Shown piece after piece: positions 16,116-25,681 of a stretch of DNA of 64,000 nt. The stretch is from Sedimentisphaerales bacterium (lineage in GTDB: Bacteria; Planctomycetota; Phycisphaerae; Sedimentisphaerales; SM23-30): assembly GCA_963666285.1 (NCBI GenBank), contig OY762711.1; one strand, written 5' to 3'. The number at the start of each line of letters is the position of its first letter. The first letter of the stretch is position 1. The notes beneath the pieces were generated by a model, which saw only the letters and a list, made by a program, of their open reading frames with translations, did no database searches and was not told where the DNA came from. The position numbers and the translations under genes were made by a program.

Positions 16116-16274
16116 GTGCCAGGTGTAAGGTTATATTTAACAAGGAAACATTATTATGGGTGTAAATGTTACCTTGCCAAGCTTTAAAACCTGGTTGCAT
16201 GACAGCACCTTAACTTATATCTTGTTACGGCAACTGTGCTGACAGTTGCAAAATTGTGAAAGACGAATAATGTG

Positions 16275-19200
16275 ATGGAGCATTTTATATATCAACATGG
16301 TGACCGCCCCTTAGAGGGCTATACAATCCAGCGGGCTGCCGGCCGCGGTGGTTTCGGCGAGGTATATTATGCCATAAGCGATTCCGGTCGGGAAGTTGCC
16401 CTGAAGGTGGTCAATAATTACGAAACGATCGAGCTGCGGGGCATTACCCAGTGCATGAACCTCAAAAGCCCGCATCTGGTTTCGATTTTTGATGTCAAAT
16501 ACAATGAAGCCAATAAGCCATTCGTTATTATGGAGTATGTCTCAGGTCCTTCATTGCGAGATCTGCTGGACCAGGCTCCCAGCGGGCTCGGCGACCAGAA
16601 GGCGGCTTTCTTCCTACGTGAAATTGCCAAGGGGCTTAGTTATCTGCACGAATGCGGCATAGTTCACCGCGACCTCAAACCCGGCAATATATTCTACGAA
16701 AACGGATATGTCAAAATCGGAGACTACGGACTTAGCAAAGCTATCAAGCATGGCTATAATAGTAACCAGACTATCACTGTTGGTACTGTTCACTATATGG
16801 CACCGGAAATTGGTGCCGGCAATTACGACAGCTCGATCGATATTTACGCGCTGGGCTGTATGCTCTATGAGATGCTCACCGGCAGCGTTCCGTTTTTTGG
16901 CAGTTCGCCCGGCGAAGTATTAATGAAGCACGTTTCTTCTCAGCCGGACCTTACCGATATCGATCCAACATTTGCCAGGGTCATTACTAAAGCTCTTGCT
17001 AAGGATCCTAACGAACGTTACCAGACTGTCCAGGAAATGGTCGAAGATGCCTTTGGCCAGGAACATATCAAAAACAGCGTCTCCCAGTTCAGGGCTGATG
17101 ACCTTTCTATGATCGCCGGTCAGGTCGCCCAAAAGATCAAAGAACGCCAGACCAGCCAGACTCGTCAGGCATCTGCCCAGCCGTCTCCGGTTGAACCTGA
17201 ACCTGCCCGGTCGGAAGATAAACGTGATTTTACCGAGCCGGATCTGCCCGAAGAAATCAACCTTTCGCCTGAAAAGGCTTTTCGGATCAAAGTACGAAAA
17301 TATGACAGGTTCTCTATCTTGGGCCGGTTATTTTCCAGTGTCATTCCAATTATCATGATGATAATTGCTTTTGCCTTTTTAATCTCCGGCATGAACCTGA
17401 GTCATTTTTATGGTATCGGTGATGGCGATGATAAACTTCTGCTGATCTTTTGTCTTGCTGCTATGCAGATTGGTGCTCTTACCGGACTTTTCTCCGGTAA
17501 CAGGCTGATTGCCGGCAAAACCAGCGATCCTGTATTAAAGAATTTCGCCAGAATTGTGCCGGCTGTTCTCCTGGCAAACTTATTTGTCTTTCCCGGCTAT
17601 ATTGATGACCCGGAATCGTTCGGCCCGGTAGTCGGCATACCATCTTGCGCCCTAATTATGCTGGCATTTATGGAAAAGAAACAGTGGCTTTCTCCCATGA
17701 GAAAACGGCAGATTGACATTGGCCATATCTTTGGCAATTGCATTTTAATGTGTATCTTGGCATTGTTTGTTCCTCGTATGGTCGGGCTGAATTTCGAATC
17801 AGTACAGTTGTATTATGCCATCTGTCTGTTTGCCGGGGTATCTTTATCTGCCCAGATTATTGCTCCTTTTATCGAACCGGCTGATCGCCAGGCATTCGAA
17901 ACCGACGATACCAACTATGCCGCTGTGTGTAATAAAAGGCTTCATCACGACTCCAGGGGCCAGGCCCTTCAACCCGACTGGCTAAAGGGGCTCTGGCGTG
18001 CCGTTTCCGGGCTGCTGTTGACTACTGCCATAGTAATGATTTTTGTTGCTGATGAGTGTAATTACGGAAGTGATTGTGATTTGGCGGTTGCATTTTGTGT
18101 GGGTGCTTTTATCTTGTTCTTTGCCTCGCTCAGACCGTCTTTCTGCAAATATTATAAAGGGCTCGGCAAAAGCCTGGTTAAGCCGCTTATACTTATGATT
18201 TCATTTGCCGCCTCATATATTGGCTTTTTTGGCATGATCATTATGAATGAGGGCGCGTTTTTGTTATTTGCTATCCCAGGCATCCTGATCTTCTGGATAG
18301 CTCTGTTCATGCCCGCACGCATATTCGATACCGCTGCCGACAAATCAGGACGAGCCTTTGCTGCCAAAAAAGAAAATAGCCCAAACGCCTATCCCCATCA
18401 GAAAATTATGCCCAAACCGGACTGGCTCAAGGCTACCTGGTATTCGATTTCGGCCATTCTCTTTTCCCTTATGGTATCACTATATATTGCCATTGGCTTT
18501 TCCGGTGAAGAGGATTTTTGCATTAGTATGGGAATTGCCGCTAATATACTGTTTATCTATTCTCTGTTCTATACCTTATCCGGCTCTTACAAGGGACTCG
18601 GCAAGAGCCTGATAAAGCCGGCATTGTTAATGTTTCATTTTGCTGTTGCACATTTATTTTTCACTCTGCTCGCTCTCTCTGGCCAGGAAGAATTTACCGC
18701 CGGTGCTGTCCCGGCAACTATCTTGTTCATTGTCGTTCTCTTTATGCCCGGCAGGGTATTCGATACCGCTGCTGAAAAATCCTCGCGATTAGCTGCTTCT
18801 GCTTTCAGACATAATAGAAATATAAATACCTCAAAAATATCTACATCTAAACGTGGCGTAGCTCTTCTGTTAAGCTTCATTCCTTTAATGTCAGGTTTTG
18901 TCGGCCCTCATGGTATCCATCGGTTTTATGTCGGAAGAATCGGTACCGGTATTCTATGGCTGGTTACAGGCGGGCTCTTTGGGGTTGGCCAGTTGATTGA
19001 TATAATTATGATTCTTACCGGCAGTTTTACCGATAAAAACGGTAAACCGCTCCTGATTTGGTGGAATGAAGAGCCTACCCCTGAATATTATGAAAAGGCG
19101 GCTCATACCCGCCATACCGGCATAAATAATAATAACAATTTCGCCGATAATGTGATGAATGATGTCAGAAGTACCGTTGAGGATATCAAGGAATCTGTTC

Positions 19201-19892
19201 GCTCTGTTACTGCTTCGGCAAAAGAAAAAGTAGCTACTGTAAAAGAACAGGTTGACAATAACGAATTTGTCGAAGATAGAAAGCAGAATGGCGAATGGTT
19301 CTCTCATGGTTCAAACTATTCAACTTACCGTGAACCGATGCGGCCTGGTGCTGCTCTACTGCGGCTTATCGGCTTTGTTTTCCTGTTAATATCTACTGTT
19401 GCCGCATTTGCCTGGGCTGCCAGGCTTCCGATTATTGTAAAAAATATTCCTGATATCTCTTCCGGCATTGATACAGAGCTCGGCGGCCCTCAGATGTGGA
19501 TGTTTATGGATAAAATCATCGTCATTATTATGATTACCGCTATGCTGCTTTCGATGCTCTTTACCTCGCTCGGCCGCAAGCATAAAAACGGTTGGCATAT
19601 GCTGCGTGGCATCATTAGTATCGGAATGGTTGCCATCGTTGCCAATAGCTGGGCTGGTATTACAGATTCCAAACTGAACAATAATTTACCGATGTTCTCT
19701 CCCAGCGGGCGTATTCCAAACGATATTATGAATTTATTCTTTAACTCTCTGCCTTCTGGCGAAGGGTTGATAACTATATTAGTCTTGGCGGTTATTGCTA
19801 TTGTGCTTTTTGCCTGGCCCGCCAGGAAACCGCAGCCTCAGCAATTTGAAAATATCTTCAGGGGCAGCGAGACTGTAGGCAATGGAAACTGA
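16275..19892 (+). CDS. Hanks-type Ser/Thr protein kinase with multi-TM sensor region and TM2 (NINE) domain
   Basis: [29 protein letters not shown]; many TM helices; [30 protein letters not shown]2 motif. Confidence 0.92.
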
Positions 19893-19919
19893 AACTGAGT
19901 ATTTCCAAGTTGAAGAAAA

Positions 19920-21326
19920 ATGGATGTGATTACTATGATGATAGCACCTAAAGGAATAATTATGGCACCTTTATTTATACTATTGATTTTATTATTACTC
20001 GTCGGCTTGATCATTCTTATCATCAAAAAGCCGAAAGTTTTATTACCTTTTCTTATTGTTGGATTGATCTTAATTGCTGTTATGTTCTTTGGCTATTCAG
20101 TTAAGGTCCCGGATGCCAGGCATTCTCAGCCGTCCGCTTCGGTTGTTGTTCAGTCGCCGGACACTGCCGCTGCTGCTCCTGTCTCGTTTCCCGATATCTG
20201 GAAAACCGGCATAGAAACCGAATTCGAAGTTGCTGATTATACCTCTATCGAAGCCGCCGCCGCCGGGCTTGCCAAAAAGATAGCTTTAGAGGGTTATTTG
20301 AACGACGCTATCAAAAATAACGGCCCAGGTGAGGTTAAATTCCTGACCGATATCCAGGTTTGCGGTGAAATTAACACCGGCATAGCAGATAATATGACTG
20401 TACTCGAAGCTGCCGCCGATTCTTTCAGAAAATACGCCGCACCTTCGATAGATTCTGAACAGGCTCCTGGTATTGTTTCTGGTGTCGAACCTGTAAAAGT
20501 CACTGTCAGTCCCGCTATCCCTGCCAACCCGCTTTGGGGCGCCAAAAACGGGGCGGTACTGGTAAAGATTACCGCACGGATTAACAATTCAAACGAAATC
20601 GATAACGCTCTCACTCGCCACGGAATTTTATCCATGCAGGTTCAGGCCAACAGTTACCAGCTCGACAATTCCGCCGCTTTTTCAGAAGCCAACTGGCTTG
20701 TTAAACCGGAAAATTTCGCTCGGCGTATCCATCCCAACAATACCTGGCTTATCGGCTATTCGCAAACCGCATGCAGCGACCCAGCCGAAGCTCGCAGCCA
20801 GGCAATTGACGATGCCGCACTCAGGATCGCTAAAAATTTCGGCTCTGATATTACCTTTGACAAATCCGACATCAGCAGGTTGAGTCTCATCAAGGACACC
20901 TATACCCAGAAGCTAAGGGGCAGCCAGGGCGATATATATCGCACCGCCGTTCTCATCAGCGGCCAAACTTCTGTTATTAGCAACAATTTGACCGCTTTAC
21001 GCAATTCTCATACACAACAGGTAACTACAGAACAGGTACATAGGCAGAACAGCATCCTTTCCGGTTGGGCCTCTATCGCAATCCTGGTCGCTGCTATTTT
21101 CCTCAGCTATTTCCTGCTCGATTTCGTCACAAAGGGCTACTACAAGGGCCGGCTTGTCCTGGTTCTTATCGCACTCGCCGTTCTCGGCATAATTGCAATT
21201 GTGTTTATCAGCCGCCAGAGAGCCGGAATTATGGCCTATAACAATCACACGGTCAATCACTCCGTATACGGTCAGGTAGATGAAAACAATATGCCTTTCA
21301 AACTGACCATCGGTCAGTTTGTGTAA
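19920..21326 (+). CDS. Membrane protein with large extracytoplasmic domain; start codon uncertain
   Basis: TM pairs at both termini; follows the kinase after 27 nt. Confidence 0.7.
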   Translation: MDVITMMIAPKGIIMAPLFILLILLLLVGLIILIIKKPKVLLPFLIVGLILIAVMFFGYSVKVPDARHSQPSASVVVQSPDTAAAAPVSFPDIWKTGIETEFEVADYTSIEAAAAGLAKKIALEGYLNDAIKNNGPGEVKFLTDIQVCGEINTGIADNMTVLEAAADSFRKYAAPSIDSEQAPGIVSGVEPVKVTVSPAIPANPLWGAKNGAVLVKITARINNSNEIDNALTRHGILSMQVQANSYQLDNSAAFSEANWLVKPENFARRIHPNNTWLIGYSQTACSDPAEARSQAIDDAALRIAKNFGSDITFDKSDISRLSLIKDTYTQKLRGSQGDIYRTAVLISGQTSVISNNLTALRNSHTQQVTTEQVHRQNSILSGWASIAILVAAIFLSYFLLDFVTKGYYKGRLVLVLIALAVLGIIAIVFISRQRAGIMAYNNHTVNHSVYGQVDENNMPFKLTIGQFV

Positions 21327-21599
21327 ATATTAAAACACGAGCAGAATGAAATCTGCCTTAAGCGGAGCGAGTCACCTTATAATTATTGGTGTGAATTCGT
21401 GTCCATCCTATGAACCGGAGCATTTCAAGTTGTTTTTCTTCTTTTTTACATTTTTATCAAATTTCCTGGGTTTTTGCCCCTGTAGCTTCGTCGCCTCGGC
21501 GTCAGCTCTCACCCAAACATGGGCTGATGCCGATGGCGTAAGAAGTTACAGGGGCTAACCCTGTTAGCTTTTGAGCTGAGGCAGAGGCCTCATATTTTA

Positions 21600-21785
21600 T
21601 TAACTGAGCTGCTTTTGGCAGGCATTCAACGACCTAACCTCCTATTCGTACTCACCTTATTCGGCGGCACATTAAACTTTATACAGACCGTAACTCCCAT
21701 TCTTCGTGACGAGGTTTTAAGTAAACTTAAACTTCAATTGACATTCACCGGGATCTTACGGCATAGTCGCTCAGCCTTTATTATA
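21600..21785 (-). ncRNA. Predicted seek/bridge RNA of the IS1111-type element; boundaries approximate
   Basis: Stem ccgtaa..tccc / gggagttacgg encloses an internal loop with UGUCAAUU and CACGAA matching the two target flanks. Confidence 0.6.
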
Positions 21786-21792
21786 TTGTCTT

Positions 21793-22851
21793 CTATGCAG
21801 CCTGATTTATCATTTCTGCGTTAAACATCTCGCCTGTCTTCAACATGGCTCTCATTATCGATGTTAACTTACGTGCTACCGCAACTATCGCTATCTTTTT
21901 CCTGCCGTCCTGACCGGCCATGACCCGCTCATAAAACTGCCTTATCGCCGGGCAAAACCTCACAACACGCCAGCTTGACTCACATAATGCCCATCGCACT
22001 ACCTGCGGACCATGCTTGCTGATATGTCCCAATCTGCGAGTCGAACCGCTCTCATCCAGCTTTGGCGTTAAGCCAAAGTAGGCACTGTATTGCTTATAGT
22101 TACTAAACCTGTCTATATCATCTGTATAAGCAAGCATCGCCTCAGCTGTCCTTGGACCAACCCCGGGAATACTCATCAATAATTCAGCTCCAGGATTATC
22201 TTTTATCTTCTCATCCAGTCTGGCTGTTATCTTATCTCTTTGATTCTCCAGTAATTTTAACTGTTCAAGTAAATCTTCCAACTGAAGACTCCACAGTACA
22301 TCTTCTTTTGACTTTGTTAAGCTCTCCATCCAGACTCGATTCTTCTTGCTCCACCAGGTGCCTTTATGCTCTGGCACTAAATAGCCATTGCTCTTTATCA
22401 ACGCTCTTATCTGATTCTTGGTCTGACCAACTTTACGTACCGTCTTCTGGCGATGCAATATCATCTGACGCCATTGCCTTACCGCCTTATCTGGCATATA
22501 AACACTTGGCAATTCATCAATACTGTACAAAATTGCCATCTTACGCGCATCTATTCGATCGTTTTTCTTATTGGTACGATATATCCAGGTAGCTTTGGTG
22601 GGATTCACTACCTTCACTTCATCCACCAGGTCAACTATCTGATCATATATCCAACCGGCCAAACCGCTAACCTCAAACGCCACAAATACCTTATTCTTCT
22701 TAGACTTATGCTTTATCAAAAAATCTTGCAAACTGCCAATGTCAGGAGGTAATGTCGCGTACTTCTCTGTACCATTTTCATATACCATTGAAACTGTTTT
22801 CTTGCTATCCATATCTAATCCGATATACTTAATCATAACTGGGGCCTCCAA
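21793..22851 (-). CDS. IS110-family recombinase/transposase
   Basis: IGLD, AFE, KNDRIDA (DEDD RuvC-like); SIPGVG; LDESGS serine motif; AVARKL. Confidence 0.95.
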   Translation of the reverse strand: MEAPVMIKYIGLDMDSKKTVSMVYENGTEKYATLPPDIGSLQDFLIKHKSKKNKVFVAFEVSGLAGWIYDQIVDLVDEVKVVNPTKATWIYRTNKKNDRIDARKMAILYSIDELPSVYMPDKAVRQWRQMILHRQKTVRKVGQTKNQIRALIKSNGYLVPEHKGTWWSKKNRVWMESLTKSKEDVLWSLQLEDLLEQLKLLENQRDKITARLDEKIKDNPGAELLMSIPGVGPRTAEAMLAYTDDIDRFSNYKQYSAYFGLTPKLDESGSTRRLGHISKHGPQVVRWALCESSWRVVRFCPAIRQFYERVMAGQDGRKKIAIVAVARKLTSIMRAMLKTGEMFNAEMINQAA

Positions 22852-23147
22852 TAAGGTTTATTGTTTGTGCTTCGAGCACGTTTAAAATAGGACGTCGTAT
22901 TATATTATACTCGATCCTGAATTAACCGGGAGGCTCCGGTTACCATAGCTTATTCGTGGTTTAGCTCTTTTATATTTTCTTTTTACATTTTTTGTGTATT
23001 TCATGAAAAAGTTTCACCCACCGCAGACTGACCGGTGTTTATCGCGGTTAAATTCCAGGCATTTTCATATTGTTTTCTCCTGAACTTCCGTTTAAAATCT
23101 CTTTTCGGTTAAGAATTTCCAATTTTGCACAAGGCGTTAAAATTCAA

Positions 23148-23539: not shown

Positions 23540-25681
23540 TTACAACTTCAGCATCTTTAACAGATCGGCATTACCAAGCGAGCCTAGCGAAGTTACGCCA
23601 GACGATAAAGCTAAGTTGTTTATCACCGGCGTAGGATCTATTGCATTAATAACAGTATAAGATTTCGACATACTCGCAACAGTAACACCACCCTGAGATA
23701 TCGCAACACCCGCGGTTACTGAACCAACCGTACCGGCAATGGTCGTAAAGTCTACTTCTTCAGGCATCGCAAACTCTATATCCTGATCACTTAAACTGTT
23801 AGCCGCTAAGTTGGTATCGTTAGTAGAATTCAAAACTGCATTTAATACATATTCTAAATCCAGCTCTAAATCACTACTATCATCCGAAAGACTTTCTACT
23901 CTGCCATAACCATCTAATGACAATACCAGGTCATATGCGGCATTAAGAGAAGCATAATCGTGATCAATATCGTCCTTGTCACGGTTAACATTTGCTATCG
24001 ATTTTATTCTCGATCTATACGTAATATTTTTATTATCATTAACTTTATGATTTATTGTCGCTACATTTTCATTACCAGCCCCAACCAACTCTGGTTTGGT
24101 ACTATCATCCCCTGTAGAATGCCTGCTTTTTGAATCGGACGCATGATTCTTTTCTCTAACATGCTCACCTTCTGAAACCTCTTCTGATGGTTCCCCATGG
24201 CCCATCGGACCATGACGATCTGGAGCCATCTGAGTTCCTGTTGTCACATTATGATCGTAAATTCCATGGCGATCTATATGTCCGGGAAACCTGCCTGGTT
24301 CGTCCATAGGCATATCACTAAGAACTGCCCCTTCTCCAAAAGTTACAGGCATTGGCCGTCCTGGCCCCGCATTGGAGCCAATTACATTTGGAAACGCAGG
24401 AAAACCTGGCATAATTATAAATTCGCCTTCTTTTGGCATCATAACCATTGGATTAAAATCATTTGGTATAATACCAAATGGTAGCGGCACAAACATATCG
24501 TCACCTGGTAATAAGCTCTCATCTTCAGGAGGAGGTGGAACAAGCCCTTCCGGCTGAAGAGGTGGAACCAGGATATCTGAAGTAAAATCTTCTACTAAAC
24601 CGCTATCGGGATCGGTGCCTATAAAATCAATTTCTCCAGCTTCAAAACTGTCAACATCAACACCTGGCTCCGTACCTGCAGGATCCATTATTACATCATT
24701 ATTATAAACATCCCCTGCATCAGAAGTTGCATCATCATCAACAGAATCATTTGAATTATTATCTGCCGGCTCCTCGATCATACTGTCTATTGGCATAACA
24801 ACAATCGTACCGATTGACATATTACCGTTACTGTCGACAATTGTATATGATATCGTATCTGCCTCATTGAAATATGCCGGCCTGATATAGACTGTCCGGC
24901 CAAGATAATCTGATGATATATAGCCAGTTGCTGGTTTATCAATTGTCACCAACTGTATTTCATCACCATCAGGGTCATAATCATTTGATATTATACCATC
25001 CAGAACCACTGTACTGCCTTCATATAGAATCATATCATTTACAGCTACTGGTGCATCTTCTACCGGGCTGATGTCTATTGTTACCGTTGCAATACTTGTT
25101 CCGCCTGATGTGTCTGAAACAGTATACGTAAATGAATCAGTGCCATAATAATCCTGGGACGGTGTATATACAAATGTTCCATCCCCAGAATCAACAACAT
25201 TACCATGCTCCGGCTGAGTAACAGAAATTGTACTCAGATCAGAAATGTCTATATCAACATCATTTACAAACATATCTGTAAGCATAACAGAGGTATCTTC
25301 TTCTGTAACATAACTGTCATCAAAAGTTTCAACAGATATATTTTCATCATTTAAAACATCCACTCCTTCAATACCATGAGAAAACATTGCCAACAAATCT
25401 ATTTGTTCTCCTGTTTCACGAACAAGTTCTTCAACTCGGTCAAGAATATCTAATGGAGAATGATCGTTGCTGTTGAACATAAGTATATCATCAGCATTTG
25501 ATACATCTTTTAATGTTTCAGAACTATTTAATGTTTCATCAACAAGAGCAATATCCCACCCTGAAGCGTTTAGTAAATGACGTATCTCAAGAGCTTCGAT
25601 ACTCAGCTTATGACTAAGCTTGCCGGATGCTATCTCTTCTGTTGTTCTATTTAATTGTTTTGCTTTTCTATTTTTTCTCAA
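23540..25681 (-). CDS. LEPR-XLL motif extracellular protein with partial DUF4347 and cadherin/Ig-like (Big) domains
   Basis: LSIEALEIRHLL; LAMFSHG; VTEEDT..NDVDID..PEHG..FVYTP..GTDSFTYTVSD; APVAVND. Confidence 0.8.
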   Translation of the reverse strand: MRKNRKAKQLNRTTEEIASGKLSHKLSIEALEIRHLLNASGWDIALVDETLNSSETLKDVSNADDILMFNSNDHSPLDILDRVEELVRETGEQIDLLAMFSHGIEGVDVLNDENISVETFDDSYVTEEDTSVMLTDMFVNDVDIDISDLSTISVTQPEHGNVVDSGDGTFVYTPSQDYYGTDSFTYTVSDTSGGTSIATVTIDISPVEDAPVAVNDMILYEGSTVVLDGIISNDYDPDGDEIQLVTIDKPATGYISSDYLGRTVYIRPAYFNEADTISYTIVDSNGNMSIGTIVVMPIDSMIEEPADNNSNDSVDDDATSDAGDVYNNDVIMDPAGTEPGVDVDSFEAGEIDFIGTDPDSGLVEDFTSDILVPPLQPEGLVPPPPEDESLLPGDDMFVPLPFGIIPNDFNPMVMMPKEGEFIIMPGFPAFPNVIGSNAGPGRPMPVTFGEGAVLSDMPMDEPGRFPGHIDRHGIYDHNVTTGTQMAPDRHGPMGHGEPSEEVSEGEHVREKNHASDSKSRHSTGDDSTKPELVGAGNENVATINHKVNDNKNITYRSRIKSIANVNRDKDDIDHDYASLNAAYDLVLSLDGYGRVESLSDDSSDLELDLEYVLNAVLNSTNDTNLAANSLSDQDIEFAMPEEVDFTTIAGTVGSVTAGVAISQGGVTVASMSKSYTVINAIDPTPVINNLALSSGVTSLGSLGNADLLKMLKL

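Follow-up and report, generated by a model that had tools for sequence, protein, structure and literature searches.

An insertion sequence lies on the minus strand at positions 21407 to 22953 of the window, the whole 64,000-nucleotide stretch of DNA that was analysed. Between its transposase gene and its right end it holds the sequence of a predicted guide RNA, described further below. The other features of the locus are:

21407..22953, minus strand: IS1111-type insertion sequence, 1,547 bp including one AT core
21793..22836, minus strand: IS110-family DEDD transposase, 347 aa from the ATG at 22836
22947..22953, minus strand: 7-bp left terminal extension including the AT core; carries the -10 box of the predicted circle-junction promoter
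22933..22946, minus strand: left subterminal inverted repeat (9-bp perfect pair 21413-21421 / 22933-22941)
21407..21421, minus strand: right subterminal inverted repeat and 3-bp extension
21423..21428, minus strand: -35 box, 17 nt from the -10 box after end joining
22841..22937, minus strand: leader hairpin, in which 22937-22929 pairs with the ribosome-binding site 22849-22841; fold z -3.35
21476..21591, minus strand: distal hairpin block between the guide RNA and the right end (inverted repeat I3)
21385..21406, minus strand: target repeat units 2 and 3 with the target-side AT
22954..22962, minus strand: target repeat unit 1

Ends, copies and transposase

Four copies of the element are present in the host genome, all 1,547 bp long, at least 99.2% identical and encoding identical proteins. 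The copy at C1:5746279 has ~10 transposase-gene differences from the others, all silent. Read depth over the element in one run (X1) was ~100, against ~24-29 over the flanks. The earlier note had proposed an AT core and a target site that is rebuilt on excision. Removing 21407-22953 (1,547 bp including one AT) does restore the site it described, and the coordinates check. The same cut is valid for all four copies; three give the exact site and one gives a degenerate unit, CACTG/AT/GGATAC. The ends and the core are set by this comparison of copies. None of the neighbouring genes is interrupted by the element. The neighbours (window positions 16272-21326 and 23540-25681) encode a 1,206-aa Ser/Thr kinase with a TM2 domain, a 468-aa membrane protein and a 713-aa cadherin-like/Ig-domain protein.

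The transposase matches the Pfam profiles PF01548 and PF02371, and NF033542 with 217 bits against a cut-off of 140. It has the two parts expected of the IS110 family, a RuvC-like DEDD domain and a Tnp domain with the catalytic serine. Residues D8, E55, D93, D96 and S263 are invariant across 68 homologs, and S263 stands with a GL-P----SG motif. Close homologs were found in 24 of the 401 genomes searched (the host counted), all of the host's order; other homolog records are mostly from Phycisphaerae, Sedimentisphaerales or other Planctomycetota.

According to the available part of the seekRNA paper (PMC11187229), IS1111 elements carry extensions of 7 bp on the left and 3 bp on the right outside their inverted repeats. 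This pattern, without target duplication, is found in all four copies. The inverted repeats are subterminal and within the 7-17 bp range of the group: i) 9 bp are perfectly paired; and ii) 12 bp pair if a 2-nt indel is allowed, with a CAT/ATG triplet extending the match. A long non-coding region follows the transposase gene (386 nt downstream vs 117 nt upstream), and the guides come in the IS1111 order, the top-strand complement first and the bottom-strand complement second. These sequence features of the IS1111 group are all present, and the element is assigned to that group from them rather than from placement among the named ISfinder elements. Four exact transposase motifs had no match in six supplement files of PMC11187229.

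Joining of the ends would bring the -35 and -10 boxes together. The spacer between them is 17 nt in 57 of the 62 homologous right ends and 18 nt in four, and by analogy with published relatives the circle junction would act as a promoter. No circle junction was present in the assembly, nor among the listed joints and contigs of four runs; contigs drop rare forms. In run X5 a contig of low depth from a related organism crosses the locus with the element missing, but it differs at 13 other letters, and as an empty allele it is only a hint. At the left end, the site that is complementary to the ribosome-binding site is present in 58 of 59 left ends, and the leader hairpin may serve as a translational brake. 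A TATAAT box lies at window positions 22909-22899, and is seen by eye in many relatives; a transcript from this box could be free of the sequence that blocks the ribosome-binding site. The distal hairpin block has a stand-alone copy, 74% identical, on contig C4 (42547-42660), a similar block occurs in one relative (L133), and a shorter hairpin is found at this position in many relatives.

The predicted guide RNA and its target loop

Homologs were kept at 47% identity or above, which gave 83 non-identical loci; a further family search found no new loci. From these, nine near-duplicates were removed together with 18 further loci: nine lacking a right end, seven intact ones that escaped the extraction patterns, one truncated and one internally deleted. 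The remaining 56 RNAs include 42 with a usable right flank (3 were dropped as mis-parsed and 11 lacked one) and 45 with a left flank. Invariance of GAAT and ATAGGAG in the 56 is partly by construction, because both motifs were contained in the extraction patterns. The seven intact RNAs that were skipped all keep the target-loop AA, and one has a changed donor guide. The tree was a quick version. Two loci are unusual: L024 carries an apparent inverted copy of the right end upstream of the gene, and L150 is without half of the target loop and without the left donor guide. The RNA and the parts of its target loop are:

21602..21776, minus strand: predicted bridge/seek RNA, its ends placed from the outer helix; fold z -2.43
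21737..21743, minus strand: target guide 1, 5 nt plus core AU; reads the window-left flank, with a mismatch beside the core
21700..21708, minus strand: target guide 2 (21708-21703), then a conserved G (21702) and the target-loop handshake bases AA (21701-21700)

The stem that the earlier note had drawn in the minus-strand RNA is in place, with its arms at 21761-21750 and 21698-21688. The consensus layout is a long stem, an internal loop and an apical stem, followed by a second closing stem, a loop and a hairpin. Among the 29 consensus pairs, 18 show two-sided change. With two outer helices added, 92.8% of the cells pair, compared with 34-43% when the partners are slid, a lenient control in that the structure was derived from the same sequences. 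Both guides are open in the centroid fold and in the 56-sequence consensus, lying in an internal loop between covarying stems rather than in paired stems. The minimum-energy fold of the single sequence is the exception, and there 3 nt of guide 1 pair with guide 2. In relatives, two crossing helices can form between the 5' and 3' ends of the RNA (alignment columns 7-19 with 194-215). These helices (77% and 91% paired) may possibly close the guide RNA as a pseudoknot clamp in relatives; in the window element a pseudoknot is not evident, its 9 bp being no better than in shuffled sequence. Rfam gave 10 weak matches with E values up to 5, all far below the gathering scores and none relevant.

The two matches to the flanks reported by the earlier note, UGUCAAUU at 21743-21736 and CACGAA at 21708-21703, were both found in place. 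Taken alone they are weak evidence: by hand arithmetic an exact 6-mer is expected by chance in ~10% of cases in ~390 nt, and a 7-of-8 match in ~15%. It is the comparison of relatives that fixes the identity and register of the guides, each of which covaries with its flank. The match of guide 1 to the right flank is 4.83 of 7 positions (2.78 after shuffling; n=42), and that of guide 2 to the left flank is 4.07 of 5 (2.74 after shuffling; n=45); in neither case did any of 20,000 shuffles reach the observed value. The covariation is register-specific, with z above 10 for both guides, and each of the guide 1 positions +1 to +7 is above the null. Off-register controls are near the null (largest z 2.2), and crossed pairings give no match. 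The loop therefore has the two target-covarying guides of a bridge RNA.

Relatives are kin, so shuffle counts overstate independence and the retargeted elements weigh more. These lie on several separate branches of the quick tree. Fifteen elements have a right flank and a guide 2 that is not of the repeat type; their guide 1 matches 7/7 in eight, 6/7 in three and 5/7 in two, and fails in two. One relative, in four copies (L004, L014, L016 and L018), is retargeted to a different, hairpin-like repeat, with a 10/10 guide match in three copies. The window element itself is imperfect: guide 1 matches at only 4 of the 7 non-core positions, with a mismatch next to the core, and no genomic site matches the target loop perfectly. 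Allowing guide 1 to skip one extra DNA base improves its fit by at least two positions in 6 of 27 repeat-type elements vs 1 of 15 others. This hints that a 1-nt DNA bulge may be tolerated by some repeat-type elements; the same picture would result from weak selection on that side.

The donor loop and the handshake bases

The second loop of the predicted RNA has a similar design:

21671..21678, minus strand: probable left donor guide (AGUUU, one extra base, AU)
21637..21645, minus strand: right donor guide (21645-21640), then a conserved G (21639) and the donor-loop handshake bases GU (21638-21637)

AUAGGA at 21645-21640 had been taken as a donor-side guide, and this reading held: the motif is in place and tracks the donor end in distant relatives. 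It is invariant in close relatives. Among 26 elements at 31-39% identity, 17 of which have one common end type, 23 have a right donor guide that follows the right end of the donor; in a stricter window the match is 22/26 against a null of 12.3. The left donor guide had been called not cleanly identifiable. Comparison locates it, probably, at 21678-21671, and the doubt stands to the extent that the evidence is weaker than for the target guides. The match is 3.31 of 4 observed vs 3.10 shuffled (2 of 20,000 shuffles, n=45), the signal comes from two positions only, and the pairing needs a bulge (one extra RNA base) and a wobble pair. The donor loop thus also has two guides, a strong right one and a modest left one with a bulge.

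Both loops end alike, with five guide bases, an A, a G, two free bases and a closing pair. In IS621 the two free loop bases pair with the other DNA after strand exchange, according to the available part of PMC11208158. In the present lineage the two target-loop bases are AA, and AA also follows the core of the donor in 45/45 elements; both are invariant and fit but cannot covary. The first donor-loop base does covary. It equals the target base at +1 in 37 of 42 close relatives (null 68%, 0 of 20,000 shuffles) and in 19 of 26 distant elements (null 12.0), thus fitting the non-cognate DNA as in a bridge RNA. The base departs from the common U on four separate branches, each with at least one matching target change and two also with a mismatch. 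Base 2 shows no covariation in close relatives (12/42). In the distant elements, 24 of 26 right junctions have G as the second core base, matching the conserved G of the RNA; in the close clade, which has an AT core, this G is kept as a mismatch opposite the second core base.

The +1 base of the target sets the two loops against each other. From the target guide T would be expected, and from the handshake base G; all four insertions have G. Among the sites that depart from the guide by one mismatch, the element occupies 3 of 8 with G and 0 of 24 with T. The hand-computed Fisher p is ~0.01, or ~0.08 with only the 9 T-sites in arrays, for a site set that contains no A- or C-sites and three copies that may not be independent. 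Plain tolerance at +1 is a possible explanation of the G preference. No report of handshake pairing being tested in IS1111 was found in the passages of the openly available literature that were searched.

The landing repeat and the proposed insertion mechanism

The earlier note had named a host intergenic repeat as the target and the flanks of other copies as the check. All four copies are found in one repeat family, where they share both position and orientation, so that the sites are related; the site is CACGA/AT/GGACA in three and the degenerate CACTG/AT/GGATA in one. Five exact empty sites are left in the genome. The insertion point is the first boundary of a direct array of three ~10-bp units, a pattern found in 43 arrays on contig C1 vs one in each of two shuffles. 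By the filter applied, none of the C1 arrays is inside a long ORF. A looser two-unit pattern was mostly noise (89 found vs 61-64 in shuffled C1) and was replaced by the three-unit pattern. The description of the target as REP-like is right as to a dispersed intergenic repeat, but not as to a REP hairpin: the units are direct, with a 10-bp period, and form no stable palindrome. At the five empty sites the target unit has no consistent hairpin (fold z +1.4 to -3.6), and stable folds come mostly from neighbouring hairpins.

A repeat-type guide 2 is found in 39 of the 56 RNAs, spread over the tree, which suggests that the repeat is a long-standing target of the lineage. An association of the repeat with GxxExxY or four-helix-bundle genes was considered and set aside: no common neighbour of the arrays was obvious among the nearest ORFs by inspection, and a literature search on this point gave nothing relevant.

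The repeat is also used by other elements. Two further IS110-family elements of this genome, of IS1111 type and 34% and 24% identical, have the same 7/3 end layout. The first has nine copies, all with the left flank ACCACGA, and the site is rebuilt in eight of the nine. The second has three copies, and all three cut the same repeat unit in the opposite orientation. Their loci are on C1, e.g. 714497, 915068 and 3250489, and 3804251, 5397362 and 6012047. A CRISPR array of 13 spacers lies outside the window (C1:3248290-3250720), after cas-like genes; its repeat is presumably similar to Cas12a repeats. Spacer 1 bears the target repeat, spacer 2 matches C1:5307714 at 25 of 26 bases, and one copy of the 34%-identical element is inside spacer 10, which also bears the repeat. 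Three different elements thus share the landing repeat, and one of them has broken into a CRISPR array at a spacer that bears it. A search of the openly available literature found no report of IS110 elements in tandem repeats of Planctomycet genomes, and on IS110 in CRISPR-array spacers it gave reviews only, available in part.

The earlier reading of an RNA-guided recombinase of IS1111 type is supported by the family match, the copy sites and the guide covariation. The element is very probably an RNA-guided insertion sequence of the IS1111 group; one copy in a site with several mismatches counts against this. Following published relatives, the element would form a circle whose joined ends create a promoter, and the junction transcript would yield the transposase and a ~175-nt guide RNA from the right end. 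The target loop would pair with both strands of the first unit of the 10-bp-period repeat, and the donor loop with both strands of the joined ends. The transposase would then exchange strands at the AT core, aided by the handshake bases as in IS621, giving insertion in one orientation without target duplication. RNA expression, the ends of the RNA and catalysis are expected here by analogy.

A wider reading, which we consider evenly balanced, is that: i) the IS1111 group uses the complete strand-exchange code of IS621; ii) the donor loop here takes part in target choice, as all four insertions have G though T-type sites are commoner; iii) the lineage is specialised on an undescribed 10-bp-period repeat that is the landing pad of three distantly related RNA-guided elements in one genome; and iv) some members may tolerate a 1-nt DNA bulge (9- and 10-bp periods).

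The donor loop is where a simpler account has its best case. A target-only seekRNA (~21762-21687) might suffice, with the protein recognising the ends via the inverted repeats and the donor loop dispensable, as for ISEc11, where the available part of PMC11187229 reports an 82-nt RNA to be sufficient and to promote movement more effectively than the longer form. In the present RNA the target loop forms a stem-loop of its own, of about that size, and the left donor guide gives a weak signal. We nevertheless consider this account unlikely. The donor-loop stems, the right donor guide and the handshake base are conserved, changing in step with the ends and the target, which argues for selection on the donor loop; moreover, both RNA forms may coexist, as reported for another IS110 in a preprint available in part. 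The sequence comparison favours a donor loop that is functional in this lineage, and the covariation falls short of making it required.

The three exact-site copies might instead have spread as one repeat cassette with the element already inside, by duplication or gene conversion. They do have ~14 bp on the left and ~45 bp on the right in common, from the same repeat subfamily. Several positions in these flanks vary from copy to copy, the subfamily also has an empty cassette (C1:4811855) and the fourth copy is in a different unit, so that spread as a cassette is quite improbable; it would weaken the within-genome counts only and not the family covariation. That the guide matches arose by chance, or that the protein alone chooses the target, is barely credible. 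Single-locus matches of 6 to 8 nt are indeed common (10-15% each, by the same arithmetic), but chance would not give register-specific covariation with z above 10 for both guides, nor retargeted relatives matching unrelated sites at 7/7.

The mechanism was already published in 2024 and many such elements are known; the element is a well-supported new example and not a new system. Its interest lies in a difference between the founding papers on the guide RNA of IS1111, which is a target-only seekRNA in one and a two-loop bridge RNA in the other, the handshake pairing having been worked out on IS621. The lineage supplies natural covariation for a donor loop and a handshake base in a right-end RNA, together with naturally retargeted variants, and so offers comparative evidence suggesting that IS1111 elements use the full two-loop bridge design. 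The +1 base offers a one-base test of the role of the donor loop in target choice.

In the comparisons that follow, the cited papers were available in part. The element resembles ISEc11, ISKpn4, ISPa11 and ISPst6 (PMC11187229) in its DEDD transposase with GL-P----SG, its subterminal inverted repeats with 7-bp/3-bp extensions, its long non-coding region 3' of the gene, a top-strand-complementary guide 5' of the bottom-strand one, a junction promoter (here predicted) and natural retargeting among relatives. It differs from them in lineage and in its target, a direct array of 10-bp period where theirs is a REP or attC hairpin. The accessible part of PMC11187229 describes target matches only, while donor guides and handshake bases are also evident here; donor-binding bases in IS1111 RNAs are predicted in the bridge paper (PMC11208160). 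Among short, dispersed, intergenic direct-repeat arrays, the landing repeat is comparable to the TAACTGA repeats (MacGregor 2015, PMC4679880), which differ in sequence and have a period of 7; the main text of that paper does not contain the terms insertion sequence, transposase or IS110. As in IS621 (PMC11208160, PMC11208158, PMC13626964), the RNA has two loops, in each of which a left and a right guide flank a 2-nt core, and the handshake bases after the right guides fit position 7 of the other DNA. In the donor loop, a handshake base (A) able to pair with the element's own donor is absent in 56/56 RNAs, in agreement with the inhibitory G166A change in IS621. The protein matches the IS621 and ISCro4 structures over its C-terminal half only (E 9e-18 and 2e-22). 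Unlike IS621, the element carries its RNA in the right end (the left in IS621) and has long inverted repeats, and its core is AT in place of CT, so that the retained G mismatches here.
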